Shown here one piece after another: positions 4,056 to 19,975 of a stretch of DNA of 24,449 nt (positions are counted from its first letter, which is position 1; the number at the start of each line of letters is the position of its first letter). A program made the position numbers and the translations under genes. Origin of the DNA: Fidelibacterota bacterium (GTDB taxonomy: Bacteria; Fidelibacterota; Fidelibacteria; Fidelibacterales; Fidelibacteraceae); NCBI GenBank assembly GCA_029931905.1, contig JAOZRH010000001.1:92782-117230 (forward strand). Reading direction: 5' to 3'. Below the pieces are notes generated by a model. That model had not been told where the DNA came from, did no database searches, and worked only from the letters and a program-made list of their open reading frames with translations.

Positions 4056-7000
4056 ATGAATATAGTTGATAATTTTAGTAGCACATTTCATAATAGTGCA
4101 GATACAGAATATACACGAAAACAAATGGCAAAGGCTCTGACATTTAATATTAAACGTAAATATAAGAGCTTGTCAGACGAAGAAGTGGTGGATAAAAGTG
4201 AGATAATTATGAAGACTCATGGTCTTTCGAAGGATAACTTCAATGGGCTTAAAGTTGTTCAGGCATTGATTGCCAATAATATAAATGATGTGTCTATAGA
4301 TGATAATTCTAATAAGAACGAGAAAACAATTGCTGGATTATTTTCCGAAGCAAATACATCAGTTAAAAAGATTGCTGGATATGACTTACTTTATCGTGTA
4401 ATGAAAGAAATGTATGGTAAGATTAGGGCAAAGAGATTAACCGGTGAGATGCTTGATTATTCATTAGGGTTGTCTGATTCTGGGAATATATTAATTCCAT
4501 ATTGTATGTATGGGAATACTCCAATTTATGTAAGGTATAATGGTGTAGTAAAAATAATTACATTTAAAAAATTATATAAATTATTTGAAGATTTTCATAC
4601 TGATAAAGGTACATATACAGAAGTTAGTTTTAAGGACTTATATAAACCAGTTGATATAAAAACTGCGGTATATGCAAAAAATGTAGGAAATAGTGCTACA
4701 TCTAAAAATACATCAGTTCTTAAAACTCCTCCACATGAAAAACAAACATTAGAGATATGGGACAATACAAATGGGTGGGTGAATGTTAGTCGTATTACAC
4801 GGCGTAATAATCATGATGAGTTTGTTTTATATCAAATTGATGATGGGGATTTTGCATTAGTTACCACTGACCATTTAGTGTATATGGGTGATGGTAGTGA
4901 AAAGTGTGCAGGGGAGTTACAGATTGGTGAAACTATATTAAAAGAATCTGATTTCAAATTACCTGATGTTCATGAGTATATTAATGTAAATACTGATCTT
5001 GCATATTTATTAGGTTTTATATTAGGTGATGGTAATGCTATGTCTGGTGATATTAATAATTCTGTTAGAACATTAGGATTTTCATCAAAAGAATTTAATA
5101 TGTTAAATATGGAATACTTTGGATGTTCATTTAAAGAGAATTCATTTACTAAAACATTACCCGTGAATTTTTTAAATTGGGAAAAGGACTCCAAATTGGC
5201 ATTTATTGCAGGATTGATTGATGCTGATGGCTGTATCCATAAACCACAATATAATTTGGTTAATATAAGGATGATGTCGTATGCTACTGTGAATATATTA
5301 AGTGATATCATGAAAACATTTGATGGTATTCATGGGGTGAAAAAACGTATTGATGGAAATAGTATTAAAACTTGTATGTATGAGGTCAAATTTAAAGTTA
5401 CTAAAGATTCGGGATTATTGAAGTATTGTAATAAACTTAAAAATGCATATAATGATGCCCCTGATCAGTTTGATAATTATAATGAAAATTTGAGTCATGG
5501 TAAAACTGGAAATTCTATTTGTAAAATTATAAGATTTTATAAGGATGATATCGAAGATACAAGATTTCTTAGTGATGAAGTTAAATATGTATATGATATT
5601 ACAACTGATACCAGTAGATTTTATGCAAATGGAATGGTACAGCATAATTGTTATGCTATAAATGCATCTCAGTTAAATTTGATTGGTAGAGATTTTGGGA
5701 TTCTTCCATCAAAACCATGTAAAAGAATCGGTAGTTACGTTTCATCACTATGTGAAACTATTCATCAAATGAGTAGTCATGTTGCCGGTGCCATTGCAAT
5801 TGGAACACTTTTCTTTGATATTGCACACCTTGCAATTTTAAAAATGGATATCCCACTTGATAACTTGAAAGATAATGTCAAAACCAGAAAGCATTTTGAA
5901 AATGAGTTACAGCAATTTGTTCATTGTGTAACAGAAGATACTGAAGTTCTTACCCCAACTGGATTTAAAACATATAATGAATTACATATTGGTGACCCAA
6001 TTTATACATGGAAAGATGGGCATTTAAATACTCAACAAATCGATGCACTTAATGTAGATACGTATAATGGTGAAATGCATCGGTATAGTGGTAGATGTAT
6101 TGAACAAGTTGTTACCCCTGAACATAGGGTACTTTATCATGATAGAAAGCATTATATTAAAAAATCAAGTGAACTTATTGATAAAAATAGTAGATTAAAT
6201 ATACCAATAAATGCTATAAATGATAATAATGTTGATATTGATTTATCAGATGATTTAATTTCTTTACTTGCAATTATTTTGACTGATGGTTCATTAATGT
6301 ATAACCGTAAAAAATTGCAAAATATTATCATTAAAAAATCATATAATAGATTTGGTATAGATTTTATTAAAGATACTTTAGACAATTTAAATTATACATA
6401 TTCCTATAAAGATACAATTGTAGATTCTTTTGTTAATTGTAATGATGTTGAATATGATCAAATAAAAATGAAAAATTATATAATTTCAAAAAATGATTCT
6501 GAAAAAATATTTGCAATATTAAATAATACACGTGAAGAAATTCCAAAAATTTTGACTGAAATGAGCAATAGACAGTGTAAGCTATTTACTGATATATGGT
6601 CAAAGTTTAGTGGTTACTATAAGTTTGAAACTGGTCAGAATATGAGGATGCAATGTGATAATGAAAATGTTGCAAATACATTACAGCACATTTTATTTTT
6701 AGCTGGATATGGTAGTAGGATTACATATCGTGATCTTGGTAACGATAAAGATACATTATACGTTATTCCATACCACACTAATACTAAAACTGTAACAAAT
6801 AAAGAAAAGTTCACTTATGATGGTGTTATTTGGTGTCCAACCACAAAAGATGGTGTTGTTGTTTTTAGAAAAAATGGTAAAATTTTTATTTCTGGCAATT
6901 CTGTGAATCATTTATCCCGGAATTCTAATGAGTGTGTTACAGAAGACACTGAGGTATTGACACCATCTGGATTCAAATCATACAACGAATTACATGTTGG

Positions 7001-10000
7001 TGATCCAATTTATACATGGAAAGATGGTAATATGGAAATTCAACCAACTCAACGTGTAAACGTGAATGAGTATGATGGAATTATGCATCAGTATGAAGGT
7101 CGAGATTATAACCAAGTTGTTACACCAAATCATAATGTTTTGAGAAAAAAATATAATTCTCATTTATATGAACTAATACCATCATCAGAAATCTTTAATA
7201 ATGAGATGTCAGAATCTATGCCAGTTGCATTTAATGTAACAAATGAAGTAGATTTCAATATTTCAGATGATATGTTAAAGCTTTGTACCATTGTATTATG
7301 TGATGAAACATATGGAGAGTACGAAGTAAATGATTATAGTTTGGATGTAGAAAATTCTAAAGAGATTTCTACATTACTTGATGGTAAGAAAACGGAGTTG
7401 CCAAGTTGGTTTACTAAACTAAGTCAACGTCAAGCTAATATCGTGATTGATACTTGGAAACGGTTTGATGGACATTGTGAGGATGATAAAACAAAATTAC
7501 AATGTGATAATCATGTAATAGCAGATCAGTTGCAACATTTAGTGGTATTAGCAGGATATGGTTCTATTATTAATGAACGAATTATTGGTAAAAATAAAAC
7601 TGCTACAATTTATGTAAATATATACCAACGTAAAAATAAGCAAGCTACTAATAAAAATATTGTTCATTATAAAGGAAAAGTTTGGTGTCCCACTACAGAA
7701 AATGGCATTGTTGTATATAGGAAAGATGGTAGAATTTTTATTTCTGGAAATTCACCATTTACAAATATTTCAATCTTTGGTAGAGGTAAAATTAAATATA
7801 TCCTTGAGAATGATTTTGATTGGTATTTTACGAAACCCGAAGACTCTAAACTTACTGATACACAGTGGGTAGATTATTGCACTGAATACATTTATGAATT
7901 GCAGAAACTATTCGTTGATTTTTTTGATAAAGGTGATCCCCTTAATAATGGACTTCCATATAGATTTCCCATTGTAACCATTAACTTTTCTAAGAAAAAA
8001 TCAGATGGTGAATGGAAAATTGTAGATGATCAGTTATTGTCAGATATTCTTGAGAAAGATATTTATCGGTACAATATATTTACAAGTGAAGGATCTAAAG
8101 TTGCAAGTTGTTGTTTTGATGCAAACCAAAATGTTCTGTATAGAAGTTCGGATGGTATTGGATTAGTAGATTTTAAAACATTTATTAATGATATTCCAAA
8201 TAATTCGAACACTAAAATTTTTCATAATGGATTTTGGAAATCTTTTAAAAAAGTAAAAATTGATTATGAAGATAAATTATATAAAATTGTTACTGAGAAT
8301 GGAAAATGTATTACAGTAACCGGTGATCATGAATTTCCAACACTTTTAGGTGATAAACGTGTGGAAGATTTAACAAAAGATGATCATTTAATGTCTAATA
8401 CTAAGCAATTGGCACCGATTCAAAAATTACAAAATAAATTAACATATGAGCAGGGATATTTAATTGGTTATATTCTTGGTGATGGAAGTTTTCATACCAA
8501 CATGACAGGTATTACATTATCATTAAATGAAGATTGTGTTGCTGAAACTGTACAAAATATAAAAATTGCTTTAAATGATTTTGGAATTGAGTATGATCCA
8601 ATAGTAAAGAGTGAAAATAATGTTATATATGTTCATATAAACAATACTAAATTTGTAAAAATGATTATGGAATATGTTCCATCTAATACTGCAGAAAATA
8701 AACAATTTAATATAAAAATACTTGATAATACTATTGAATGTAGACGTGGTATTCTCAGTGGTTGGTATGCGACAAGTGGTGATACTTCTAATAAATGTTA
8801 TACAGCATCCAAAATACTTATAGATCAAATGGATACACTATGTACAACCCTCGGTATTCAAACTATTAGAAATGAATCATATGATAAAAATCATGTATTA
8901 TATTGTTTAATGCAATGTGATGTATCAAATGAATCATCTGAAATGTTTTATAAATGGCATAATAATTCAATTTATTTTAAAATAAAATCCATTGAATTGG
9001 TTAATAATACAGATGATAGTGTATATTGTGTTGAAATTAAAGATGATAGTCCACATTTTACATTACCAAATGGTATTATTACACATAATTGTCGTATGAT
9101 TAATGATGAAGAAATGCTTGAAATGGCAGGTCAATCTAATTCATTTGGTGCTGGTGCACTTGCATCATTGGGTTCACATAGAGTTGTTACTATCAATTAT
9201 AATAGAATTGCACTTGAGGCTGAGTCAGTTGATGATTTCTGGCGTGTTTATAAGTATCGAATAGAAGCATCCCGTGATATTTTGAAAGCTCATAAACAGC
9301 TTATTAAAGTCCTTAGAGATGCAGGTCTACAATCATTCATTGAGAATGGTTGGATCAATATGCAACGTTTGTTTTCTACAATTGGAATATTGGGTATATA
9401 TGAATGTGGATTGACTATGCAAGAAAAATTTGGTATCAATCCAGATACATTTAAGGAAGAAATTCTATCATTCTTAAATAAGCGCGTTAAACGATATACC
9501 CGCGAAGAACCAAATAACATTTTTAATGTTGAACAAATTCCGGCAGAAAGTTTTGCAGTAAGATTAGCAAAAACTGATGCTATCTTGTATGGTGAGAAAC
9601 TTGTACCCCATAAACTATATGCGAATCAGTTTGTTCCATTGTGGCATGAAGCAAATGTATTTGAAAGATTGAGTGAAGATGGTAAATATAATCAGCTTCT
9701 TACTGGTGGTGGAATCGTTCATGCTACAATTGGTGAAAGGGTTGCACCATCACAGGCAAGAAAGATCATCGAATATGCAGTTAAAGTAGGCTCTGAACAT
9801 TTTGCATTAAATGCAATTTATTCAAATTGTGAGAATAATCATATGCATTTTGGGGATCATGATACATGTCCTGAATGTGGAGCAAATATTGAAGATAAGC
9901 TCCAGCGTGTGGTTGGTTTTTTTACTCCCGTAAAATCTTGGAATCCTATCCGCAGGGATTGGGAGTTCCCAAGACGTACTAAAATCAATCTTAGTACGGT

Positions 10001-10019
10001 TGATTCATATAATGAATAA
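4056..10019 (+). CDS. nrdD: Anaerobic (class III) ribonucleoside-triphosphate reductase carrying four inteins (1987 codons, ~681-aa extein)
   Basis: Extein junctions reconstitute conserved NrdD segments: ILIPY|CYAINAS, QQFVH|SVNHLSRNSNE|SPFTNISIF and KVASC|CRMINDEE. A C-terminal Zn ribbon (CPECG) and the glycyl-radical region RVVGFFTPVKSWNPIRRDW are present. No in-frame TAG. Confidence 0.95.
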   Translation: MNIVDNFSSTFHNSADTEYTRKQMAKALTFNIKRKYKSLSDEEVVDKSEIIMKTHGLSKDNFNGLKVVQALIANNINDVSIDDNSNKNEKTIAGLFSEANTSVKKIAGYDLLYRVMKEMYGKIRAKRLTGEMLDYSLGLSDSGNILIPYCMYGNTPIYVRYNGVVKIITFKKLYKLFEDFHTDKGTYTEVSFKDLYKPVDIKTAVYAKNVGNSATSKNTSVLKTPPHEKQTLEIWDNTNGWVNVSRITRRNNHDEFVLYQIDDGDFALVTTDHLVYMGDGSEKCAGELQIGETILKESDFKLPDVHEYINVNTDLAYLLGFILGDGNAMSGDINNSVRTLGFSSKEFNMLNMEYFGCSFKENSFTKTLPVNFLNWEKDSKLAFIAGLIDADGCIHKPQYNLVNIRMMSYATVNILSDIMKTFDGIHGVKKRIDGNSIKTCMYEVKFKVTKDSGLLKYCNKLKNAYNDAPDQFDNYNENLSHGKTGNSICKIIRFYKDDIEDTRFLSDEVKYVYDITTDTSRFYANGMVQHNCYAINASQLNLIGRDFGILPSKPCKRIGSYVSSLCETIHQMSSHVAGAIAIGTLFFDIAHLAILKMDIPLDNLKDNVKTRKHFENELQQFVHCVTEDTEVLTPTGFKTYNELHIGDPIYTWKDGHLNTQQIDALNVDTYNGEMHRYSGRCIEQVVTPEHRVLYHDRKHYIKKSSELIDKNSRLNIPINAINDNNVDIDLSDDLISLLAIILTDGSLMYNRKKLQNIIIKKSYNRFGIDFIKDTLDNLNYTYSYKDTIVDSFVNCNDVEYDQIKMKNYIISKNDSEKIFAILNNTREEIPKILTEMSNRQCKLFTDIWSKFSGYYKFETGQNMRMQCDNENVANTLQHILFLAGYGSRITYRDLGNDKDTLYVIPYHTNTKTVTNKEKFTYDGVIWCPTTKDGVVVFRKNGKIFISGNSVNHLSRNSNECVTEDTEVLTPSGFKSYNELHVGDPIYTWKDGNMEIQPTQRVNVNEYDGIMHQYEGRDYNQVVTPNHNVLRKKYNSHLYELIPSSEIFNNEMSESMPVAFNVTNEVDFNISDDMLKLCTIVLCDETYGEYEVNDYSLDVENSKEISTLLDGKKTELPSWFTKLSQRQANIVIDTWKRFDGHCEDDKTKLQCDNHVIADQLQHLVVLAGYGSIINERIIGKNKTATIYVNIYQRKNKQATNKNIVHYKGKVWCPTTENGIVVYRKDGRIFISGNSPFTNISIFGRGKIKYILENDFDWYFTKPEDSKLTDTQWVDYCTEYIYELQKLFVDFFDKGDPLNNGLPYRFPIVTINFSKKKSDGEWKIVDDQLLSDILEKDIYRYNIFTSEGSKVASCCFDANQNVLYRSSDGIGLVDFKTFINDIPNNSNTKIFHNGFWKSFKKVKIDYEDKLYKIVTENGKCITVTGDHEFPTLLGDKRVEDLTKDDHLMSNTKQLAPIQKLQNKLTYEQGYLIGYILGDGSFHTNMTGITLSLNEDCVAETVQNIKIALNDFGIEYDPIVKSENNVIYVHINNTKFVKMIMEYVPSNTAENKQFNIKILDNTIECRRGILSGWYATSGDTSNKCYTASKILIDQMDTLCTTLGIQTIRNESYDKNHVLYCLMQCDVSNESSEMFYKWHNNSIYFKIKSIELVNNTDDSVYCVEIKDDSPHFTLPNGIITHNCRMINDEEMLEMAGQSNSFGAGALASLGSHRVVTINYNRIALEAESVDDFWRVYKYRIEASRDILKAHKQLIKVLRDAGLQSFIENGWINMQRLFSTIGILGIYECGLTMQEKFGINPDTFKEEILSFLNKRVKRYTREEPNNIFNVEQIPAESFAVRLAKTDAILYGEKLVPHKLYANQFVPLWHEANVFERLSEDGKYNQLLTGGGIVHATIGERVAPSQARKIIEYAVKVGSEHFALNAIYSNCENNHMHFGDHDTCPECGANIEDKLQRVVGFFTPVKSWNPIRRDWEFPRRTKINLSTVDSYNE
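4503..5648 (+). mobile_element. NrdD intein 1 (382 aa), LAGLIDADG type
   Basis: Starts with Cys (CMYGNTPIYV) and ends VQHN followed by Cys (+1). Contains LAYLLGFILGDGNA and LAFIAGLIDADGC. Confidence 0.85.
5925..6899 (+). mobile_element. NrdD intein 2 (325 aa)
   Basis: Starts CVTEDTEVLTPTGFKTYNELHIGDPIYTWKDG and ends VVFRKNGKIFISGN followed by Ser (+1). Has the endonuclease-like block LISLLAIILTDGS. Paralogous to intein 3. Confidence 0.8.
6933..7751 (+). mobile_element. NrdD intein 3 (273 aa), paralogue of intein 2
   Basis: Starts CVTEDTEVLTPSGFKSYNELHVGDPIYTWKDG and ends VVYRKDGRIFISGN followed by Ser (+1). Only 11 extein codons (SVNHLSRNSNE) separate it from intein 2. Confidence 0.78.
8112..9089 (+). 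mobile_element. NrdD intein 4 (326 aa), LAGLIDADG type
   Basis: Starts CFDANQNVLY after KVASC and ends GIITHN followed by Cys (+1) of CRMIND. Contains YLIGYILGDGSF and ILSGWYATSGD. Confidence 0.85.
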
Positions 10020-10586: not shown

Positions 10587-13500
10587 ATGACAATAGCAAG
10601 TAGATTAGTATTAGTTGCAGGTGAGAGTTCGGGTCCAGCACCAGAAGGAAAGTATTATATCTATGCACGCAATGATGGTGTTGTGATGCGAGTTGACGAT
10701 GTTGGTGAAGAAGTCATTATTGGGCGTGATGGTTCCCAAATTCCTTCATTAGGGGAGTTGACAAATGTAGATACTACCAATGTAGAAATTGGTTAGTTTC
10801 TTACAAAAACTACAGAGAATGGATTTACATTTACACCACCAGTTCCCGGTCCACAAGGAGAACAAGGTATTCAGGGTATTCAGGGTATCCAAGGTTTAAA
10901 AGGTGATAAACCTGATCATGAATAGATTGATACCAGTATCAGATTTCAAAAACCAGATGGTACTTGGGGTACACTGATACAATTAAAAGGTAATACTGGT
11001 GATCAGGGAATTCAAGGAGAACGTGGTGAGAAAGGTGATACCGGAGATCAAGGAATACAAGGTATTCGGGGTGAACAAGGAATACAGGGTGTAAAAGGTG
11101 ATAAAGGTGATAAGGGTGAACGTGGTGAGAAAGGTGATAGGGGAGAACAAGGTGTAAAAGGTGATAAAGGTGATAAGGGTATTCAGGGTGAACAAGGTAT
11201 AACGGGTGATACTGGTGCACAGGGACTTCAAGGTATTCAGGGTGTTCAGGGTATTCAAGGTGAAGGATTTCATATTGATGGTAATGGAAATTTTTCAGAA
11301 GCTACCATCATGGATATAGAACAGAGTTCTGGTGCTACACCAAGTAATAAATATCTATATTTAATTGAAGATGATAATAGATCTGATAAAACCACACCAA
11401 TAAATAATCCAGATTTGTCTGGATATTTGGTATCATATGATGGTTCTGTTTGGTATAGCTATGGTAAAATTACAGGAGTTAAAGGTGAACAGGGTGTTCA
11501 GGGCATCCAAGGTATTCAGGGAGAAAAGGGTGATAAGGGTGATACCGGAGATCAAGGAATACAGGGTGAACAGGGCATCCAAGGAATACAAGGTGAACGT
11601 GGTGAGAAAGGTGATACCGGAGATCAAGGAATACAGGGTGAACAGGGTGAACAAGGTATTCAGGGTAATACTGGTGATCAGGGAATTCAAGGAGAACGTG
11701 GTGAGAAAGGGGATGCCGGACAAACTGGTGAACAAGGACTTAAGGGTGATAAAGGTGATAAAGGTGATCAGGGAATTCAAGGTGTAACTGGTGATCAGGG
11801 AATTCAAGGTGAACAGGGTATTCAGGGTGAGCAAGGTGATCAAGGGATAAAAGGTGATACTGGAGATCAAGGAATACAGGGAGAACGTGGTGAGAAAGGT
11901 GATACTGGACAGAAAGGTGATACTGGAGATCAAGGAATACAAGGAATCAAAGGTGACAAAGGTGATACTGGAGATCAAGGAATACAAGGTATTCAGGGTG
12001 TTCAAGGTATTCGGGGTATACAGGGACCAAGAGGAGAAGGATTCCACGTTGATGCGATTGGTGATTTTGATGAATCAACTGTTACTGCAATTGAAACAAA
12101 TTCAGATGCAACCACCACGGATAAATACCTTTATTTAATAGAGGATGATAATCGAGTTGATAAAACATTACCATTAAATGTTATAGATTTATCTGGTCAT
12201 TTGGTATCTTATGATGGTGTTCAATGGTATAATTATGGTCAGATGGGTGGTATTCAAGGTCCAGCAGGATCAGATGGTAGGGATGGTAGAGCATCACAAG
12301 ATTAGCATCATGGCTCAGGTGTACCTGTTCCAAATTCTTCATATGCAGAAGGAGATTATTATTTAAATATCGATGATGGTAAAATTTATAAATATACTGC
12401 AGGTACATGCCAAGGTCAACTTGAGTTGGTGCATGAAACATCTAATATTATGTTTGGTGATGCTATTAAGTTTGTTAAAGATGATATAGAGATCATAATC
12501 AATGATGCAGATGCAAGATATTCTGGATTTGGTATATTCTATGGTAATTCATTTGATACAGCATATATGGGATCATGTAGATACACTTATTATAATGGGG
12601 CAACTGCACAATGGAAATTTGCATTACCAGAATCTGGTGATTGGGAAATCTTCATGTAGTACCCAACACATAATAGGGCAACAAGTGGTGCCAATTGTAA
12701 ATTCTTATCAGACAATGGTGAAGAATCATTTACTGTTAATCAGAGAAATAATTCGAATCAATGGAATTCACTTGGAACATATACATTTTCACTTGGTTCT
12801 TTTGAATTTATTGGTAATATTCGTGGTGAGAAAGGTGACACAGGTGAGAAGGGTGACACTGGCGATGTGGGACCAAAGGGAGATAAAGGTGATAAAGGTG
12901 ATACTGGTCAAACTGGTGAACAAGGAATACAGGGGATTCAGGGTTTACGGGGTGAACAGGGGATTAGGGGTTTACAGGGTGAACAAGGTCTTCAAGGTAT
13001 TACCGGTGATCAGGGTGTTCAAGGTGATGTCGGTGAACGTGGTCCTAAAGGTGATACTGGAGATCAAGGAATACAAGGAATCAAAGGTGATACTGGAGAT
13101 CAAGGAATACAAGGAGAACGTGGAATACAAGGAGAACGTGGTGAGAAGGGTGATAGGGGTGAAAAGGGAGACACTGGCGCTGATGGAATATGTACATGTA
13201 GTGGTGGTATGATTGGTATGTTTAATGCCATAAATATGACATATCAATCTCACAATAATCAAGCTACTTTAAATATTCTATAGGATTCTGTTAAACGTAA
13301 TACCAATGGAGCATTTCAACATTCAACCATAAGCTCACCAGAAGAAATCATTGTCAAGTTTAATGGTTGGGTTGAGATTTCATTTAAACTGTCAATGATA
13401 TGCAATCATAATAATAGAATTATAACAATGGCATATGCTACTAAAAATTAGGATTAGATAGATGAATCAATTTCATATTCGTATACAAGAAATCATAGTT

Positions 13501-13670
13501 CTGCAAAATATGGATCTTGTGTTACTCCATCAATTTGGGTACCAGTTGAAGTCAATGATATAATTCGTATTCATACAAGAATGACAGATGATGGTTCTTT
13601 TGGTGATACAGATGATATCAGTACTTTATATGGTGAAAGTGTGGTAACCCTCAAAGGTTATATTGATTAA
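10587..13670 (+). CDS. Collagen-like tail fibre / receptor-binding protein (~1027 codons) with 7 in-frame TAG codons
   Basis: ORFs 10587-10796, 11310-12305, 12426-12659 and 12867-13283 and the gaps between them are all in one frame. The only interruptions are TAG at 10794, 10923, 12303, 12657, 13281, 13449 and 13455. The frame ends in a tandem TAA TAA at 13668-13673. GAGG RBS lies before the ATG. Four Gly-X-Y tracts are present. The N-terminal segment LGELTNVDTTNVEIG*FL is tail-fibre-like. The segment WEIFM*YPTHNRAT...VNQRNNSNQWNSLGTYTF resembles golvesin-C-like modules. Confidence 0.85.
10989..11267 (+). repeat. Collagen Gly-X-Y tract 2 (93 triplets' worth of GGT-rich 9-nt periodic repeats)
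   Basis: Uninterrupted G-X-Y translation (GNTGDQGIQGERGEKGDT...GIQGEG). A short 7-triplet tract also lies at 10848-10910. Confidence 0.9.
11475..12041 (+). repeat. Collagen Gly-X-Y tract 3 (189 triplets)
   Basis: Uninterrupted G-X-Y translation built from recurring GDQGIQGEQ / GERGEKGDT units. Confidence 0.9.
12825..13187 (+). repeat. Collagen Gly-X-Y tract 4 (121 triplets)
   Basis: GEKGDTGEKGDTGDVGPKGDKGDKGDT...GEKGDTGADG in the fibre reading frame. Confidence 0.9.
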
Positions 13671-13692
13671 TAAAATAAAATTGGGAAAAATA

Positions 13693-14235
13693 ATGATTAA
13701 ATTTAATATATTAAATAGTATTAATAAATTGGTACCGGGAGCAAGATTTAAAGGTGCAATCAAATTGCATACAGAAGAAGAATATAATGATCTTGAATAG
13801 TTAGACCCAAGAGTCAAGCCAGCATAGAGTGAAATATTTTCTCAGACATTAAAAAATATGCGTCGGGACATTATGAGTGCTATCAATTATAAAACTGATC
13901 AGATTATTGAATGGGATATGGTGTTTGATGATGGTACCAATGTGGTTCCATGTCATTTTGGAATTGAAGAACAAATTAATTTAGATACAATGGATAGATT
14001 AAGGGAAGATTTGGTGAGTATGGGCATGTTAGTATTTCCATATAAACTAAAAGTATCTGATAATGAAAATGGTGAAGGTAATTACATAAGGTTAATGAAT
14101 GCTGATCATTTACATCAATTCTTCCTTATGGGAATGTTGCATAAGAATAATGCAATTGAAACTGGACGACATATGAAAGATAACTTAAGTGGATTAAATA
14201 AGACACAATTAGAAGAATAGTTTGACACAAGGTAA
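13693..14235 (+). CDS. Fibre-associated protein (XkdW/DUF4376-like, tentative) with 3 in-frame TAG codons
   Basis: ATG at 13693 is in the same frame as ORF 13858-14220. TAG at 13798, 13825 and 14218. True stop is TAA at 14233-14235, followed 15 nt later by a strong terminator. The segment EEEYNDLE*LDPRVKPA*SEI resembles the N-terminal part of XkdW-type proteins. Confidence 0.65.
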
Positions 14236-14250
14236 AAATATACATAATAA

Positions 14251-14294
14251 AATCAACACTTTATAAAATAATTGAAATAAAGTGTTGATTTTAC
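14251..14294 (+). terminator. Rho-independent terminator ending the structural operon
   Basis: 13-bp perfect stem AATCAACACTTTA / TAAAGTGTTGATT with a 14-nt loop, followed by TTTT. Confidence 0.75.
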
Positions 14295-14615: not shown

Positions 14616-14690
14616 GCAGGTTTGGCATATTTGGTTGTGCGCTTGGCTTCCACCCAAGTTAAACGGGTTCGATTCCTGTAACCTGCTCCA
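14616..14690 (+). tRNA. tRNA-Gly (UCC)
   Basis: Acceptor GCAGGTT/AACCTGC, D arm GCAT..GTGC, anticodon stem CTTGG/CCAAG with loop CTTCCAC, T arm ACGGG-TTCGATT-CCTGT, encoded CCA. Confidence 0.88.
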
Positions 14691-14722
14691 TTATTGATCT
14701 TTGAAAATTTGTATATCTTTAC

Positions 14723-14751
14723 TTGACAAACTTAGTTTAGTTTAGTATAAT
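14723..14751 (+). promoter_or_regulatory. Promoter, TTGACAAA family (TTGACA-17 nt-TATAAT)
   Basis: Perfect -35 and -10 hexamers at 17-nt spacing. Member of the recurring cTTGACAAAt...TAGT motif. Confidence 0.65.
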
Positions 14752-14840
14752 TACCATGAAGGTAGAATAAATATTAAACTAAACTAAGGGGTCAATTGTG
14801 AAAACTTTAATGGATGAGGGGTATTTATAGATAAAAATAT

Positions 14841-14913
14841 CGGGAATACAGCATGGTGCGGTCTGCCTTTTGGATGGGTGGATTGGTGATGTCGATAATC
14901 ACATTCCCGACCA
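14841..14913 (+). ncRNA. tRNA-like element, possibly a degenerate or atypical tRNA-Pro (UGG)
   Basis: 7-bp acceptor CGGGAAT/ATTCCCG followed by A + CCA. C1-G72 and A73 are as in bacterial tRNA-Pro. T arm is perfect (GTGAT-GTCGATA-ATCAC). The only anticodon arm I can draw (TGCCT-TTTGGAT-GGGTG) has 3 G-U pairs, and the D arm is reduced. Confidence 0.35.
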
Positions 14914-15020
14914 ACAAATTTACACAAATTAATTAAAAATATTAAAAGGAAATTAAATGGTCGAAGTAAAATATAAAAAGAAAAAGATTTATTACGCGCA
15001 TCAGAATATAGGGTAATACA

Positions 15021-15545
15021 ATGGCAAAAATAAAAAATTATGTAGATAGAATATTTGTAAATGGTCCACAGTCAATTTCAATGGGAAGCGTTTGTGCATT
15101 TGATGGTATTAGATCTATTCAATTAAATGATCATAAAACATTTTTAGAATTTGGTGACTGTAGACGTAAAATACGATTACAGTGGCAATTTACAGAAGCG
15201 CCAGCACAGTATATTAATAAGATAGCATTATTGAACAAACAGCTTATATCATTTACGGAACATTTAAAAAAGTATTCACGATCTAAACCAGAAAAGTGGT
15301 ATGTTAATAGAATATGGTTAAATCCATTAAATAGTGATAGAACTGATTCGTTTTACGCATTTGATGGCTATCATGAGTTGTTTAAACCAAACAAACGTAG
15401 AATATTTATGGAAATTGCAGATTGTAATACAAAAATAAGATTTCATAAAGTACATGATGATAAAGTTGATGATGTCATATTAAAAAATGATAAAATAATA
15501 ATACTAATTAAAAACTTTATTGAACATCTTAAAAAAAATACTTGA
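15021..15545 (+). CDS. Hypothetical protein (174 aa) made of two homologous halves
   Basis: The halves share YV(D/N)RI..N, AFDG, DC..KIR and F.EHLKK. The TGA stop is embedded in the next promoter's TTGACA. Confidence 0.6.
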   Translation: MAKIKNYVDRIFVNGPQSISMGSVCAFDGIRSIQLNDHKTFLEFGDCRRKIRLQWQFTEAPAQYINKIALLNKQLISFTEHLKKYSRSKPEKWYVNRIWLNPLNSDRTDSFYAFDGYHELFKPNKRRIFMEIADCNTKIRFHKVHDDKVDDVILKNDKIIILIKNFIEHLKKNT

Positions 15546-15570
15546 CAAATAGTTTAAGTTAGTGTAAATT
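15542..15570 (+). promoter_or_regulatory. Promoter, TTGACAAA family (TTGACA-17 nt-TAAATT, preceded by TGTG-like extension)
   Basis: cTTGACAAATAGTTTAAGTTAGTGTAAATT lies about 18 nt upstream of tRNA-Met. Confidence 0.6.
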
Positions 15571-15587
15571 ATAAATATAAAAATTGG

Positions 15588-15663
15588 CGCAGGGTAGAGC
15601 AGTTGGTAGCTCATGAGGTTCATATTCTCAAGGTCGCAGGTTCAAGTCCTGCCCCTGCATCCA
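15588..15663 (+). tRNA. tRNA-Met (CAU) with initiator-like C1/A72 mismatch
   Basis: CGCAGGG/CCCTGCA acceptor with position 1:72 unpaired (C/A). D arm GAGC-AGTTGGTA-GCTC, anticodon loop TTCATAT, T arm GCAGG-TTCAAGT-CCTGC, encoded CCA. It lacks the three G-C pairs of canonical initiator anticodon stems. Confidence 0.85.
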
Positions 15664-15669
15664 AAATAT

Positions 15670-15745
15670 AGATCCTTAACTCAGTTGGGAGAGTAACTGA
15701 CTTTTAATCAGTATGTCATCGGTTCAAACCAGATAGGATCTACCA
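15670..15745 (+). tRNA. tRNA-Lys (UUU)
   Basis: Acceptor AGATCCT/AGGATCT, D arm ACTC..GAGT, anticodon stem ACTGA/TCAGT with loop CTTTTAA, T loop TTCAAAC, encoded CCA. Confidence 0.88.
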
Positions 15746-15769
15746 ACAATTTAACGGGGAGTATTCAAA

Positions 15770-16192
15770 ATGATAAGTGTAAATTTGGAATTCCTATCAA
15801 TGCCATTTACACATATAGATCCAATGATAGAAGGGCAACGAATTCATATTGCACAATATATATGTTCCGAATTATCAAAACAGAAGCGTATTGTATATTC
15901 CCCCATTATTCACTTTGTTCCAATTGCTAAAAAATTTGGTATGCTAACAGATTGGAAATATTGGGAAGAATTATGTAAGTCAATGGTAGTTCGTTGTTCG
16001 CAAGTTACTTTATTAAAATTCGATGGATGGGATCAATCCGTTGGTGTTGCGGGTGAACTTGAAGTCGCAAGAGTATATGAAAAGAAAGTAGAACAAATTG
16101 ATCCCGAACAATATATAATTGCCCTTAAAGCACTTGAACTTGAATATGATTATTGGGTAAAAGGTATAAGGTTTGTAGATGTATATAGATAA
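15770..16192 (+). CDS. DUF1937-like (nucleoside 2-deoxyribosyltransferase-fold) protein
   Basis: GGGGAG RBS. The pattern IVYSPIIHFVPIA...DGWDQSVGVAGELEVA matches the SP..H....W...DGW..S.G...E signature I associate with DUF1937. Confidence 0.55.
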   Translation: MISVNLEFLSMPFTHIDPMIEGQRIHIAQYICSELSKQKRIVYSPIIHFVPIAKKFGMLTDWKYWEELCKSMVVRCSQVTLLKFDGWDQSVGVAGELEVARVYEKKVEQIDPEQYIIALKALELEYDYWVKGIRFVDVYR

Positions 16193-16199
16193 ATTATAT

Positions 16200-16274
16200 A
16201 CTCTGGTCGTCTAATGGTCAGGACACAAGACTTTCAATCTTGTAACGTGGGGTCAGTACCCATCCAGAGTACCA
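16200..16274 (+). tRNA. tRNA-Glu (UUC)
   Basis: Aligns with bacterial tRNA-Glu: ACTCTGG TC GTCT..GGAC, anticodon loop CTTTCAA, acceptor 3' strand CCAGAGT, A + CCA. The T loop GTCAGTA is non-canonical. Confidence 0.85.
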
Positions 16275-16306
16275 ATTATGTACAGTCAAATATATTAATA
16301 GTGGTT

Positions 16307-16398
16307 TTAATGGTCGAATAGCCAGAGGTAAACCATTAATAAAGACCCGTAAGAGACAAATTAATCGAACAAGAATGTGATTAGTCAGAACCTTACGG
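16307..16398 (+). ncRNA. Two-hairpin structured spacer between tRNA-Glu and tRNA-Thr (unclassified)
   Basis: 8-bp stem TTAATGGT/ACCATTAA (16307-14 / 16332-39) and 7-bp stem CCGTAAG/CTTACGG (16347-53 / 16392-98). No ORF. Confidence 0.3.
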
Positions 16399-16412
16399 TT
16401 AATTATCGAATT

Positions 16413-16486
16413 GCCGAATTAGCTGAGTGGTTCAGCCTTGGATTTGTAACCCAATAACATCAGTTCGATTCTGATATTCGGCTCCA
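16413..16486 (+). tRNA. tRNA-Thr (UGU)
   Basis: Acceptor GCCGAAT/ATTCGGC, D arm GCTG-AGTGGTT-CAGC, anticodon loop TTTGTAA (stem has one A/C mismatch at 31:39), T arm ATCAG-TTCGATT-CTGAT, encoded CCA. Confidence 0.85.
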
Positions 16487-16493
16487 AAAAAAT

Positions 16494-16769
16494 ATGATAC
16501 ATATTTCGACTAATACACTTGGCTATAATCAATCACAATAGATTAAACGTTAGAAGAATGGTGACGAAGATGGTATATGTGGAACAACGCAAACATCTAC
16601 CCACATCAAACGTAATCCATATACAGATGGGGTTCCAATAGAATTACATCATGAAGATGGAGATATTAGGAACAATACATCAGACAATCTTAAGATACTT
16701 TACCCTAATTGTCATTCATTGACACCAACATTTAGAGCATTAAATAAGAAATCTGAAAGGAAACGATAA
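16494..16769 (+). CDS. Small HNH endonuclease with 2 in-frame TAG codons
   Basis: ATG lies 7 nt after tRNA-Thr. TAG at 16539 and 16551. C-terminal ELHHEDGDIRNNTSDNLKILYPNCHS is a classic HNH motif. The TAA stop overlaps the next ATG (TAATG). Confidence 0.65.
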
Positions 16770-17011
16770 TGATTTCACGTATAATGAAATTGCCAAAGCA
16801 CGATAATGTTATTGTTGGTAGGGATCTATCAAATGCATTTGAAGCTGGTGCAGTATATGATGTTAAAAAAATACAAGATCAAATAATTATTACTAAGATT
16901 GGTATGACCCGACTTTCTAAAAGTAGATTTGATGAACCAAATGAAAATAGTGACATTTCATCTATATTATTATCTGGAAAATATTTATTAACTGAAAATG
17001 ACGTACTATAA
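16769..17011 (+). CDS. Hypothetical protein (80 aa)
   Basis: Intact ORF, translationally coupled to the HNH gene. TAA stop. Confidence 0.55.
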   Translation: MISRIMKLPKHDNVIVGRDLSNAFEAGAVYDVKKIQDQIIITKIGMTRLSKSRFDEPNENSDISSILLSGKYLLTENDVL

Positions 17012-17023
17012 AAGGATATTATA

Positions 17024-17368
17024 ATGATACATCACTTTATGACATTCGAAGCAATTGTTCAACATATGAAAGAAAATTTTCAGGTTGTAAATACTTCTAA
17101 TGCAGATGATTCAGTTGATGGATTTGATAGATCATTTAAATGTGAAATCAAAGAGTATGAGATTAAGTTGATATGGGCAAAGAATTATATATCATCAATA
17201 AAACCAGAAAATGAAATTGAAACAACGACAGAACTTTATTTACATGGTGATAAGATTCTTACTTATACAACCGATTCATATACAACCACATTTAATTCTG
17301 ATGATCATAAAATGTATTTAATTTATGAAGCATTAGGAAAACCAAAATTAAAAATAGATTATACTTGA
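17024..17368 (+). CDS. Hypothetical protein (114 aa)
   Basis: AAGGA RBS. The TGA stop is embedded in the following TTGACA -35 box. Confidence 0.55.
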   Translation: MIHHFMTFEAIVQHMKENFQVVNTSNADDSVDGFDRSFKCEIKEYEIKLIWAKNYISSIKPENEIETTTELYLHGDKILTYTTDSYTTTFNSDDHKMYLIYEALGKPKLKIDYT

Positions 17369-17393
17369 CAAATGATCTATAATAGTGTAAGTT
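17365..17393 (+). promoter_or_regulatory. Promoter, TTGACAAA family (TTGACA-17 nt-TAAGTT with TGTG extension)
   Basis: cTTGACAAATGATCTATAATAGTGTAAGTT lies upstream of a structured leader and tRNA-Gln. Confidence 0.6.
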
Positions 17394-17413
17394 AGTATAA
17401 AAATTAAACAGTT

Positions 17414-17543
17414 TTATATATCTCTGCTGATTGATCACCAGATGGGCATTAGATAGCTCGACTTAGCGGTTGATTGATGGTTGTGTGACTTGAACTCATA
17501 TGACTGCTAATGTTTGACCTGAATGACAGGTACGGATATATAA
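17414..17543 (+). ncRNA. Structured ~130-nt leader between promoter and tRNA-Gln (unclassified)
   Basis: 9-bp closing helix TTATATATC/GATATATAA, long-range GCATTAG/CTAATGT pairing, and local hairpin ACCTG-AATGA-CAGGT. GC-enriched. No ORF. Confidence 0.3.
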
Positions 17544-17556
17544 CTTAAATAATTGA

Positions 17557-17633
17557 TGGGGTTTAGTTCAGTTTGGTAGAACAGCAGGTTTTGATCCTGT
17601 ACGTCATCCGTTCAAATCGGATAACCCCTTCCA
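17557..17633 (+). tRNA. tRNA-Gln (UUG)
   Basis: Acceptor TGGGGTT/AACCCCT (1:72 U/U unpaired), D arm GTTC-AGTTTGGTA-GAAC, anticodon stem GCAGG/CCTGT with loop TTTTGAT, T arm ATCCG-TTCAAAT-CGGAT, encoded CCA. Confidence 0.85.
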
Positions 17634-17652
17634 CTAACTTACAGGAGTTGTC

Positions 17653-18084
17653 ATGCCACGTAAATGCAAATGTTCAAGTTGGAAAGAGAATTTTCCTATA
17701 ATCAATGCGCCATTTCAAGAACCACATTCCAATTATGCACCATATGAGGCATTACCATTCAGTCACTGCCCTTGGTGTTCTAAAATGTTATTTGAATATG
17801 AAGAAGCACCAGAGAGACTTAGGGTAGAATCAACAACCATTAATGACATGCATCATATTAGATTATATGAAGATGATAAAGTTATTGATGAAATGGTATG
17901 TGAATTTAAAATTGACATCAATTATTGTCGTATGACTATGTTAAGATGGTATGATAAAATGGGTGGCACTTCAAAAATGGCATCTTCTGCCCGTGATAGA
18001 CTCAAAGGTGGCAAGTATAATTCTACTCCAAGAGGTAGAGTTTGGACACAGACACAATGGGAACGAAGGGGAAAAACAAATTGA
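17653..18084 (+). CDS. Hypothetical Cys-rich protein (143 aa); possibly extended to 18184 by a frame change
   Basis: AGGAG RBS. CKCSSW...HCPWC suggests a zinc-binding N-terminus. TGA stop at 18082. The +1 frame stays open and protein-like up to 18184. Confidence 0.6.
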   Translation: MPRKCKCSSWKENFPIINAPFQEPHSNYAPYEALPFSHCPWCSKMLFEYEEAPERLRVESTTINDMHHIRLYEDDKVIDEMVCEFKIDINYCRMTMLRWYDKMGGTSKMASSARDRLKGGKYNSTPRGRVWTQTQWERRGKTN

Positions 18085-18189
18085 AACACTTGAAAAACTG
18101 TTTAATCATAGGGAACAGGAAGTGATAGATAAAACAAAAGAACGTTCTGATGCACGTAAAAGACTTATAAAATTGAAAAAATGATTTAT

Positions 18190-18279
18190 GGTGGCTGTGG
18201 TGAAATTGGTAGACACGCAGGGTTGTGATCCCTGTGCCTTTAAGTAGGCGTGAGGGTTCAAGTCCCTTCGGTCACCCCA
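18190..18279 (+). tRNA. tRNA-His (GUG) with G-1/C73 but a class II-like long variable arm
   Basis: G(-1) + GTGGCTG...CGGTCAC + C73 + CCA and anticodon loop TTGTGAT, as in E. coli tRNA-His. The D arm GTGAAATTGGTAGACAC is tRNA-Leu-like. The 17-nt variable region has a GCCT/AGGC stem. Total 89 nt. Confidence 0.7.
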
Positions 18280-18295
18280 TATTAAAAGGATATAT

Positions 18296-18544
18296 ATGAA
18301 ATACCCTGTTACTTGTTCAATACTTGGATTTTTTGGCATTGCTGGAATTGTTCTTACTATATATTTTAATGTTACATTCAAACGGATTGACATCCCAAAA
18401 GGTAGCATTGGTATCGTATGGCAAGAAGATAAGCACCTAACAATTGAATCAATTCATAAATCAGGAATTTTATTCATTCAACATAGCTCAACCGTTAATA
18501 TTTATCCAGACTTTGATACTGGTGCAATAAAGGAAACATTATAA
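18296..18544 (+). CDS. Small membrane protein (82 aa)
   Basis: AAAGGA RBS. N-terminal hydrophobic segment VTCSILGFFGIAGIVLTIYF. Confidence 0.55.
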   Translation: MKYPVTCSILGFFGIAGIVLTIYFNVTFKRIDIPKGSIGIVWQEDKHLTIESIHKSGILFIQHSSTVNIYPDFDTGAIKETL

Positions 18545-19111
18545 ATGAAACAACTTATTGGTTTAAATAATTTCGTCAGAAGACAGGTTGAAGGTTCAAG
18601 ATTTTCATACTTTTATGGTTCATGGCAAAGATTACTTAATCTATGCAATGATACAATCAATGAAACCAATACAATTAAAGGACAGGATGGCGTAGTACTT
18701 CTTAAGGTTGATCCAAAAGATTTCTATACTGGTTTGGTCCAAGTATCAGAGTTGGACAATATTGTAGCAAAATTGATCAAGCGTCAAGAAAATGAAGCAC
18801 CTTTTATTAATGTGACGGTTCTTAGTGCACAACAACCTGCTAAATTTGTTGAAATTGTACTGTATTCATATGATAGACTCAGGTTGAACAATGAACAAAG
18901 TACAGAATGTGATTGGGAGATCATTTGTATTAATGCATACCCCACATCAGAAGCATCACCAATGACCCCTTTGACTATGGCAAGAAATTATCTTGATCTT
19001 GAAGGTGGAACAAAGTCAGTTTATACTGCCGAAGAATTTGCCAAATCCATTGTTTATTGGTCAACCCATGCAATGGTAGATCCAGTAGAACCATTTGAAA
19101 AAAAAGTTTAA
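18545..19111 (+). CDS. Hypothetical protein (188 aa)
   Basis: The ATG immediately follows the previous TAA stop (TAAATG, 18542-18547). Intact ORF, TAA stop. No family recognised with confidence. Confidence 0.6.
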   Translation: MKQLIGLNNFVRRQVEGSRFSYFYGSWQRLLNLCNDTINETNTIKGQDGVVLLKVDPKDFYTGLVQVSELDNIVAKLIKRQENEAPFINVTVLSAQQPAKFVEIVLYSYDRLRLNNEQSTECDWEIICINAYPTSEASPMTPLTMARNYLDLEGGTKSVYTAEEFAKSIVYWSTHAMVDPVEPFEKKV

Positions 19112-19114
19112 TGT

Positions 19115-19190
19115 ACCGATATAGCTCAGTTGGTAGAGCACCTGCTTCATACGTAGGTTGTCACCGGTTCAAGTCCAGTTATCTGTACCA
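19115..19190 (+). tRNA. tRNA with CAU anticodon (elongator Met or Ile2/lysidine type)
   Basis: Acceptor ACCGATA/TATCTGT (one C/U mismatch), D arm GCTC-AGTTGGTA-GAGC, anticodon stem CCTGC/GTAGG with loop TTCATAC, T loop TTCAAGT, A73 + CCA. Confidence 0.8.
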
Positions 19191-19353
19191 TGTATTATAA
19201 ATAACAGATATAAAATAATACAATTAATTATATATTAACGCACTTAAACAGAGTTTCTTGTCAGTGATTTGAATATATATAGTTATGGCTCAACAATAAA
19301 TATATTAGAAAGAACAGGTATATTGATTCCGCCCAATATATTAATTTAACATT

Positions 19354-19391
19354 TGTATGGATTTGTACAAAGGCTTGTATGAATCCATACA
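19354..19391 (+). terminator. 10-bp hairpin (TGTATGGATT/AATCCATACA) with T-rich tail
   Basis: Perfect inverted repeat with an 18-nt loop, followed by TAAATTTTATTT. Lies between the last tRNA and the next promoter. Confidence 0.5.
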
Positions 19392-19422
19392 TAAATTTTA
19401 TTTAAAATATACAAATTTTCTC

Positions 19423-19451
19423 TTGACTTAACTGAATTTATGATATATATT
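19423..19451 (+). promoter_or_regulatory. Promoter (TTGACT ... TGATATATAT extended -10) ahead of the RNA-repeat array
   Basis: -35 TTGACT at 19423-28. The TG-n-TATATA / TATATT element lies 15-17 nt downstream. Confidence 0.55.
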
Positions 19452-19506
19452 GTTTTACATTAAATGGAGCAATGATCTTTTAAAACTTATTACCGCAAAT
19501 TTATAC

Positions 19507-19594
19507 AGTGGCTATAAATATTCATACTTCTATTTTATTATATAAAGACGAACCGGACTTGATCCGGCACTTAATTGAATATTTTCTTACCATT
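19507..19594 (+). ncRNA. Structured RNA repeat unit 1 (novel motif)
   Basis: P1 AGTGG/CCATT, core GGCTA-TAAATATTC-ATACTTCTA, P3 CCGGA-CTTGA-TCCGG, P2 partner GAATATTT(T). Confidence 0.6.
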
Positions 19595-19604
19595 ACTTTA
19601 AATC

Positions 19605-19673
19605 GGGGCTATGAGAATACATACTTCTATATAATTAAATTGAAATTAACTAAAATGTATTCTTAATTACCTC
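19605..19673 (+). ncRNA. Structured RNA repeat unit 2
   Basis: P1 GGGG/CCTC, core GGCTA-TGAGAATAC-ATACTTCTA, P3 TAATT-AAATTGA-AATTA, P2 partner GTATTCTTA. Confidence 0.55.
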
Positions 19674-19677
19674 CACA

Positions 19678-19776
19678 TTTTACACTAATAAGTGGCTATA
19701 AAGTAACATACTTCTAATTCTGTCCCTTATGGGACTCAGCATTTGATTGAATTCGGTTATTTTAATTACCACTTAC
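19678..19776 (+). repeat. 99-bp perfect direct repeat, copy A
   Basis: Identical by eye to 19856-19954. Contains RNA unit 3. Confidence 0.85.
19690..19774 (+). ncRNA. Structured RNA repeat unit 3
   Basis: P1 AAGTGG/CCACTT, core GGCTA-TAAAGTAAC-ATACTTCTA, P3 GTCCC-TTAT-GGGAC, P2 partner GTTATTTTA. Confidence 0.6.
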
Positions 19777-19859
19777 AAAAGGCTATAATGGTTCATACTT
19801 CTAAAAACCCAACTCTGCCTTGAAAGCAGACCATATTAACGAATTATTAATTACCTTTT
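19777..19859 (+). ncRNA. Structured RNA repeat unit 4
   Basis: P1 AAAAGG/CCTTTT, core GGCTA-TAATGGTTC-ATACTTCTA, P3 CTGC-CTTGAAA-GCAG, P2 partner GAATTATTA (two G-U pairs). Confidence 0.6.
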
Positions 19860-19954
19860 ACACTAATAAGTGGCTATAAAGTAACATACTTCTAATTCTG
19901 TCCCTTATGGGACTCAGCATTTGATTGAATTCGGTTATTTTAATTACCACTTAC
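19856..19954 (+). repeat. 99-bp perfect direct repeat, copy B
   Basis: Identical by eye to 19678-19776. Contains RNA unit 5. Confidence 0.85.
19868..19952 (+). ncRNA. Structured RNA repeat unit 5 (identical to unit 3)
   Basis: Same sequence as unit 3. Ends 23 nt before the ATG of the 693-aa gene, with the AGGAG RBS in between. Confidence 0.6.
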
Positions 19955-19975
19955 TTTTAACAGGAGAATATCATA

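Follow-up and report, generated by a model that had tools for sequence, protein, structure and literature searches.

What does the codon TAG mean in a phage whose genes fall apart at TAG when they are read with the standard genetic code? The question is raised by a stretch of 24,449 nucleotides (hereafter the window; positions 92,782 to 117,230 of contig JAOZRH010000001.1, GenBank assembly GCA_029931905.1, filed under a Fidelibacterota bacterium), in which a collagen-like tail-fibre gene, its downstream neighbour (g13693), an HNH endonuclease gene and a lectin-like gene all carry in-frame TAG codons (Table 1). The window is part of a huge phage of about 270 kb: except for one swapped cassette, its sequence matches part of a 271,481-bp metagenome scaffold in the ENA (ERZ23491059 DOMB18-1_SAMN06288063_METAG-scaffold_2) at 99.9% identity. 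We compared it with two further relatives, namely a stretch of a 129,771-bp NCBI contig (JAPOGZ010000004.1; here L001), which shares about 90-97% nucleotide identity with the window and about 90% in the fibre region, and the 232,818-bp contig IMGVR_UViG_3300039008_000120 from IMG/VR, whose proteins are 35-60% identical to those of the window. We show that TAG is a sense codon in the four genes, and we argue from comparative sequence evidence that it is likely read as tryptophan.

The reading frame that opens at 10587 meets no stop before 13668 other than its seven TAGs. Given that TAA or TGA make up 6.5% of the trinucleotides of the window, the chance that 1027 codons run on with neither of them is about 8e-31, and the other two forward frames across the same span hold 27 and 145 TAA or TGA codons. 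The original prediction, made from the sequence alone, had joined four open reading frames (ORFs; 10587-10796, 11310-12305, 12426-12659 and 12867-13283) into one gene, and they do lie exactly there, in a single frame with seven TAGs and a tandem TAA end; the TAG positions proposed for g13693, the HNH gene and the gene at 23156-23572 are also correct, and all three genes end in TAA. The product of the joined fibre gene has N- and C-terminal domains, three blocks of Gly-X-Y, two spacer domains that are repeated and a Golvesin_C-like domain, with matches to Collagen, Golvesin_C and PHROG tail-fibre families. The further suggestion that collagen periodicity runs straight through the TAGs needs qualification: the same frame is kept on either side of them, but no TAG lies inside any Gly-X-Y run.

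As the prediction had also held, no gene in the window uses TAG as its stop. Among the 23 genes that could be delimited, 18 end in TAA and 5 in TGA, and none requires read-through of an in-frame TGA. All 14 TAGs of the window are kept in L001, and the same TAGs are present in independent assemblies from ENA, NCBI, JGI and Logan. Between the window and L001, the ratio of nonsynonymous to synonymous substitution rates (dN/dS) is 0.09-0.64 in six segments of the fibre gene and g13693 that lie downstream of a TAG; the part of the fibre gene upstream of its first TAG gives 0.12. Homologues of unrelated origin align through the TAG positions and do not stop there, which was the check proposed with the prediction. 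Existing annotations differ in how they treat these genes: in the relatives from NCBI, JGI and Logan they are called in pieces of 69, 42, 148, 91, 77 and 143 amino acids (aa), and the ENA record of the near-identical scaffold reads TAG through and gives products of 1027, 180 and 138 aa. No flanking bases are conserved across the TAG sites, and the mean local folding energy there is -4.2 kcal/mol versus -5.2 kcal/mol at TGG codons; this lack of a common context or structure argues for recoding at the level of the codon rather than at specific sites.

An important aspect of this recoding is the amino acid that is inserted, and here the aligned residues point to tryptophan. Six of the 14 TAGs in the window stand on tryptophan columns (10923, 12303, 12657, 13798, 13825 and 16551), while 14218 stands on an aromatic one. 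In the fibre gene, TAG 10923 is aligned with tryptophan in four cultured phages of Vibrio and Pseudoalteromonas (pYD6-A, henriette 12B8, VBP47 and 1.097.O), for example in PDHEWIDTSLRF, as well as in the aligned repeat copy of protein P0009, whose other copies of the motif likewise have tryptophan when the sequence is read directly. TAG 12657 is aligned with tryptophan in all seven Golvesin_C domain copies of P0010, P0011 and P0012, within an MWW or LWW motif. The neighbour g13693 is a member of a widespread family without known function, for which a profile search of 1.84 billion representatives returned 371 relatives at E <= 0.001. When the best 150 of these 371 are aligned to the profile, column 13798 holds W in 43 of 62 sequences (Q in 5, I in 4, Y in none) and column 13825 holds W in 42 of 71 (Y in 14, F in 6, Q in 2). 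Column 14218 is aromatic, with F in 38, W in 19, Y in 18, I in 10 and Q in none of 90, and the homologues run on there through the same F/W/Y-x-D-x-R tail. The HNH gene matches HNH_3 and phrog_14736, and 196 phage records match it. PDB alignments of the Golvesin-like and lectin-like domains were uninformative, as they put TAG on variable positions (M and T). When the informative columns are combined in column-weighted BLOSUM62 log-odds, the 12 columns of the window give 16.5 for tryptophan, 4.0 for tyrosine, 1.9 for phenylalanine and below -5 for glutamine; with the columns of the relatives included, and without the later HNH data, the values are 21.7 for tryptophan, 14.2 for tyrosine and -8.3 for glutamine.

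Codon usage and codon exchange between relatives give the same answer. The fibre gene of L001 has three TAGs beyond those of the window, of which two align with TGG in the window and one with TAT; one of the two TGG sites is the conserved tryptophan of the Golvesin motif QWNxLG. Where a gene has two or more TAGs, tryptophan as encoded by TGG is the most depleted amino acid: TGG makes up 0.24% of codons in such genes of the IMG/VR relative versus 0.78% (p = 0.003), and 0.43% versus 1.49% in L001 (p = 0.0006), so that its level in TAG-bearing genes is about 0.3 of that in TAG-free ones. In the L001 genes with at least two TAGs, TGG and TAG together come to exactly 1.49%. Tyrosine and glutamine codons show no depletion in the TAG-bearing genes of either relative, and phenylalanine is unchanged in the IMG/VR relative and mildly lower in L001 (a ratio of 0.69 versus 0.28 for tryptophan). 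Several TAG-bearing genes of the relative contain no TGG at all, for example that of a 336-aa protein with 5 TAGs.

TAG is confined to a subset of genes. The four TAG genes contain 14 TAG and 11 TGG codons, and the 19 other genes of the window no TAG and 65 TGG (Fisher p = 5e-10); with TAG treated as sense, no other real gene contains it, so the TAG-bearing genes are 4 of 23. In all three lineages the DNA polymerase, a UvrD-like helicase, NrdD, NrdG and a 693-aa protein are TAG-free. Among the TAG-bearing genes overall, besides that of the fibre and the one next to it, are those of homing endonucleases (HNH and NUMOD3), of a 734-aa protein encoded upstream of the helicase, of ATP-grasp-like proteins, and of small membrane proteins in which tandem TAG-TAG comes past a hydrophobic helix. 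Two adjacent genes of this last kind in the IMG/VR relative (L016 13640-14449 and 14450-15025) carry the tandem past an N-terminal hydrophobic helix, as …STAS-TAG-TAG-LMC… and …VIRG-TAG-TAG-YPK…, which under the proposed code would be read as WW. This distribution also bears on the claim that standard-code calling mis-annotates a whole structural block. Such calling does fragment the four TAG genes, but the block was overstated because most of the window (polymerase, NrdG, NrdD, tRNAs, small ORFs) is non-structural and TAG-free; only the fibre gene and its neighbour have a virion-related look.

Taken together, it is probable that a subset of the genes of this phage uses TAG as an additional codon for tryptophan. 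The host would read TAG as a stop, by analogy with the phages that read TAG as glutamine or TGA as tryptophan, and the phage would supply or create a UAG decoder during infection. The simplest decoder would be a tRNA that has the anticodon CUA and is charged by tryptophanyl-tRNA synthetase (TrpRS), although a less conventional one, such as anticodon editing of tRNA-Trp, could serve as well. The TAG genes (the fibre gene, its neighbour, the homing endonucleases and others) would then be fully translated only once the decoder is present. That TAG is kept out of replication genes argues that it is a stop at the start of infection, and the same logic has been put forward for other phages with recoded stops. 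We infer the decoder; it was not found in the sequence that could be reached.

Several observations weigh against this proposal. Some TAG columns hold tyrosine or phenylalanine instead of tryptophan (16539 Y, 14218 mostly F, and four columns in the relatives Y), and five TAGs of the window lack an informative homologue. The former is expected at aromatic positions, and an excess of tyrosine at TAG columns can be understood from the proposal itself, since TAG read as tryptophan opens a one-step path between tyrosine and tryptophan. The TAG-bearing genes of the relatives include those of ATP-grasp-like and membrane proteins, and the 'late' timing of TAG genes is deduced from gene function alone; a PDB search with the ATP-grasp-like protein of the relative gave no usable match. 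There is no tRNA(CUA) and no tRNA-Trp in the window, in 50 kb (18%) of the 271-kb ENA scaffold, in 61 kb of the IMG/VR relative (26% of 233 kb) or in 20 kb of L001, and no release-factor or TrpRS domain is on the Pfam lists for those 50 kb of the scaffold. The eight tRNAs of the window include none with anticodon CUA or CCA, and a relaxed Rfam scan of its tRNA region added nothing to them. Those 50 kb of the ENA scaffold encode about 29 tRNAs for 17 amino acids, including tRNA-Tyr(GUA), with no tryptophan tRNA and no suppressor among them, and the 61 kb of the IMG/VR relative only tRNA-Leu and tRNA-Gln. No CUA anticodon was found in 13 loci of more distant relatives or in genome and metagenome scans. 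At very low thresholds ARAGORN reported a 'Pyl(cta)' tRNA, which we rejected, as it lies inside a coding gene and among hundreds of false calls.

Among other amino acids, tyrosine is the one that deserves most thought, and we consider it improbable. It would be inserted by a supF-like tRNA-Tyr whose anticodon has changed from GUA to CUA. Tyrosine is the second-best fit in the log-odds; it is aligned with TAG at 16539, in 14 of 71 sequences at 13825 and at four columns in the relatives; TAG is one transversion away from TAT or TAC; and the tRNA-Tyr(GUA) gene of the ENA scaffold could have been duplicated. Against this, column 13798 holds tryptophan in 43 of 62 sequences and tyrosine in none, columns 10923, 12657 and 16551 are invariant tryptophan across all homologues aligned there, and 12303 is tryptophan in its sole confident homologue. 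Moreover, it is TGG and not the tyrosine codons that is depleted in TAG-bearing genes, and two of the three sites at which L001 has a TAG and the window does not are TGG. Glutamine, which the original prediction had adopted from the precedent of recoded phages such as the crAss-like and Lak ones (translation table 15), fares much worse, with every test favouring tryptophan and glutamine among the worst fits, and we give it only a very small chance. It is the sole resolved TAG reassignment for phages in the literature that we searched, it occupies 5 of 62 sequences at column 13798, and a tRNA-Gln(UUG) is encoded by the window and its relatives. Its log-odds of below -5, set against 16.5 for tryptophan, speak against it, as do the lack of any glutamine in the fibre, Golvesin_C or HNH columns, the undepleted glutamine codons of TAG-bearing genes and the fact that, among relatives, TGG and TAT are the codons that interchange with TAG, and CAG or CAA never do.

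The remaining alternatives concern how, or whether, TAG comes to be read as tryptophan. If the host itself read TAG in this way, the phage would merely follow the host code and no phage-driven switch would be needed, which would fit with the lack of a phage suppressor tRNA in the sequence examined. We find this unlikely: the 19 other genes of the window use 65 tryptophan codons and not one TAG, an exclusion that would be pointless in such a host, the large early genes of both relatives are equally TAG-free, and distant relatives in Kangiellaceae and Methylococcaceae assemblies lack the run-through TAG pattern. A crude comparison of coding density between codes was too noisy to classify these distant relatives. 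Editing of the mRNA is a still less probable route, in which an adenosine deaminase converts UAG to UIG, read as UGG, so that an ordinary tRNA-Trp(CCA) can decode it. UAG editing has a precedent in the amber/W site of hepatitis delta virus. It would yield tryptophan specifically and without a tRNA(CUA), consistent with none having been found, but the 14 sites lack the common context or hairpin that site-specific editing enzymes need, the Pfam lists for 50 kb hold no deaminase domain, and at least 35 sites in the relative would require editing. The idea that the TAGs are real stops, in pseudogenes, through assembly errors or in genes with short products and occasional read-through, can be set aside almost entirely. 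Standard-code callers do give short ORFs only; yet the recurrence of the TAGs in independent assemblies, purifying selection downstream of them, homologues that align across them and 1027 codons without TAA or TGA all contradict it. Tryptophan decoding by the phage remains our preferred explanation.

Table 1. Features of the window discussed in the text, with position 1 as its first letter; labels beginning with L denote stretches of related sequences and carry their own coordinates.
Feature	Window position	Strand	Observations
Family-B DNA polymerase	59-2701		Complete gene in L008 6609-9989; 1126 aa in ENA scaffold
NrdD anaerobic ribonucleotide reductase	4056-10019		1987 aa; Intein_splicing and LAGLIDADG matches
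Collagen-like tail-fibre gene	10587-13673	+	1027 codons; 7 in-frame TAG, 8 TGG; ends TAA TAA (13668/13671)
Sense TAG, fibre codon 70	10794-10796	+	Kept in L001; aligned residues D, D and L, uninformative
Sense TAG, fibre codon 113	10923-10925	+	Motif PDHE-TAG-IDTSIRF, then DGTWG
Sense TAG, fibre codon 573	12303-12305	+	W of P0010: SIWHNGNGAP versus SQD-TAG-HHGSGVP
Sense TAG, fibre codon 691	12657-12659	+	Inside Golvesin_C-like domain; spanned by Pfam Golvesin_C match
Sense TAG, fibre codon 899	13281-13283	+	TAG in same column of L001 and of distant IMG/VR relative (41% protein identity)
Sense TAG, fibre codon 955	13449-13451	+	Kept in L001; D in IMG/VR relative, variable loop
Sense TAG, fibre codon 957	13455-13457	+	Kept in L001; K in IMG/VR relative
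g13693, directly 3' of fibre gene	13693-14235	+	180 codons; 3 TAG, 1 TGG; TAA end at 14233
Sense TAG, g13693 codon 36	13798-13800	+	TAG in same column of L001 and IMG/VR relative
Sense TAG, g13693 codon 45	13825-13827	+	Family column given in text
Sense TAG, g13693 codon 176	14218-14220	+	Five codons ahead of TAA
Hairpin, terminator candidate	~14248-14293	+	17-bp perfect AT-rich stem, 12-nt loop; -18.2 kcal/mol, z = -6.0
Cassette	16415-18443		2 kb, replaced in otherwise 99.9%-identical ENA scaffold
HNH endonuclease gene	16494-16769	+	91 codons; 2 TAG, 0 TGG; TAA end; between tRNA-Thr and next ORF
Sense TAG, HNH codon 16	16539-16541	+	Y in Xanthomonas phage XbC2; kept in L001
Sense TAG, HNH codon 20	16551-16553	+	W in Xanthomonas phage XbC2 (INRWLNGDELG) and Enterococcus phage iF6 (IERWKNGLEDG)
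tRNA, anticodon GUG (His)	18191-18279		Also L001 15052-15140, L002 6438-6526, L005 5617-5703
Lectin-like gene	23156-23572	+	138 codons; 2 TAG, 2 TGG; TAA end; weak Lectin_C_term / Agglutinin_C similarity
Sense TAG, lectin-like gene codon 4	23165-23167	+	In frame past ATG 23156; no informative homologue
Sense TAG, lectin-like gene codon 108	23477-23479	+	Spanned by alignment to fungal agglutinin 2iho; T, variable position
PTH2-family peptidyl-tRNA hydrolase	23586-23990		Pfam match on identical product in L006 and L013

Apart from the fibre gene and its neighbour, the window contains eight tRNA genes among small ORFs (one of them the HNH endonuclease), and it encodes a family-B DNA polymerase (its C-terminal part), NrdG, NrdD with inteins, the 693-aa protein without known function and a PTH2-type peptidyl-tRNA hydrolase. 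Neither a megablast of the window nor a tblastn with two of the TAG-bearing proteins matched any of 50,697 phage records. A chimeric query joined from all TAG-bearing segments retrieved only 4 proteins, which were nevertheless of use. The polymerase is a single 877-codon frame in the IMG/VR contig (L014), and in a 99.98%-identical copy from another sample (L003) it is represented by two gene calls, of 588 and 252 aa; an insertion (an intein or similar) or a split is possible. NrdD is 1298 aa long in L001 and about 690 aa in the IMG/VR relative, and from these lengths the window copy probably has two inteins and that of L001 one. Other translation-related phage genes besides the hydrolase, namely an RNA ligase and a CTP_transf_like protein, lie further downstream in L013. 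As for the strong terminator that had been predicted past 14235, the hairpin there is real, but it has no clean T-run and was missed by a consensus terminator scan.

The tRNA region has features of its own. All eight tRNA genes of the window (14616-19190) encode the 3' CCA end. The tRNA with anticodon GUG is 87-89 nt long and has G at -1, discriminator C, a 6-bp anticodon stem and a long type-II-like variable arm (Rfam 48.7 bits); such an arm is unusual for tRNA-His, and the tRNA is conserved in the relatives. L005 (16101-16192, the same as L013 6587-6678) has a second type-II-like tRNA, 92 nt long and with a long variable arm; its anticodon, GUU (Asn), is likewise one that is normally found on tRNAs with a short arm. 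The cassette looks like a swap within the tRNA region driven by homing endonucleases: in the window it comprises tRNA-Thr, the HNH gene, three small ORFs and tRNA-Gln, and in the ENA scaffold a T5orf172/MUG113 gene and another tRNA-Met. Just beyond the tRNA genes, 785 nt (19191-19975) lack a convincing ORF and form the sole part of the window with negative GC skew; at this point L001 has about 1.5 kb extra, including a 328-codon gene with 4 TAGs. The ENA scaffold further carries a TnpB / IS605 OrfB (Cas12f-like) gene (L005 13544-14932) directly upstream of a nine-tRNA array.

Weak hints at the host come from distant homologues. Scaffold14 of the isolate assembly of Aliikangiella coralliicola M105 (NZ_ML660173.1, 122,976 bp) holds a 49%-identical homologue of the 693-aa protein, with more large ORFs of phage-like kind beside it; the scaffold may represent a related phage or prophage and hence hint at host range, and TAG is apparently a stop in it. 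Further hints are distant homologues of the 693-aa protein in metagenome-assembled genomes of Methylococcaceae and Kangiellaceae, and a fibre motif that the window shares with Vibrio and Pseudoalteromonas phages.

Compared with known systems, the phage agrees with stop-codon-recoded phages in every tested respect save the amino acid. Like the phages that read TAG as glutamine (crAss-like, Lak, Phassvirus and others), it has in-frame TAG in intact genes and none as a terminator, it concentrates TAG in a gene subset that excludes replication genes, it has a large, tRNA-rich genome, and standard calling fragments its genes. Unlike in these phages, the alignments give tryptophan and the sequence reached holds no Sup-CTA tRNA, a tRNA that published surveys report in just 40-52% of TAG-recoded phages. 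A second comparison is with phages that read TGA as tryptophan (table 4: Jade, Agate and some crAss-like phages), in which, as here, a stop codon that differs from TGG by one transition serves as a second tryptophan codon; there the recoded codon is used in lytic or late genes, and the decoder is a suppressor tRNA, sometimes accompanied by a phage TrpRS and release factor. In our case, on the other hand, the codon is TAG, and TGA is a genuine stop (5 of 23 genes). Pyrrolysine decoding similarly makes UAG sense in a gene subset and keeps the other stops, but the columns here are tryptophan or aromatic rather than lysine-like, and the Pfam lists for 50 kb contain no pyl genes. The same assignment of UAG to tryptophan is found in Balanophoraceae plastids, whose code is translation table 32 and whose genome is extremely AT-rich, with G-to-A pressure turning TGG into TAG; that case is plastid-wide and belongs to a eukaryotic organelle, whereas here we are dealing with a gene-subset code in a virus of bacteria.

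Phage recoding in the literature is TAG to glutamine or, in a survey of huge phages, TAG to an unresolved 'X', with tryptophan reported for TGA only; one survey gives TAG read as glutamine and TGA read as tryptophan as the only recodings in phages that differ from their host, and TGA to glycine occurs in phages with code-25 hosts. Our literature search for TAG or UAG read as tryptophan returned only Balanophoraceae plastids and no phage case, in a coverage from which subscription journals were mostly absent, so that an earlier description elsewhere is possible. We think it likely that the window belongs to a clade of 230-270-kb phages, with relatives near marine Gammaproteobacteria, in which UAG is a second tryptophan codon in a subset of genes. 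If this is true, it would be a genetic code undescribed for any virus or bacterium and otherwise reported in Balanophoraceae plastids only, and it would represent a third route of phage stop-codon recoding. It would mean that the recruitment of TrpRS, or of another system, to a CUA anticodon is possible in nature, and it would offer a reason why some 'TAG to X' huge-phage genomes stayed unresolved. Annotation with table 15 would put glutamine at every conserved tryptophan of the tail fibres and other proteins of such phages. Finally, natural amber suppression that is specific for tryptophan would be usable for genetic-code engineering.

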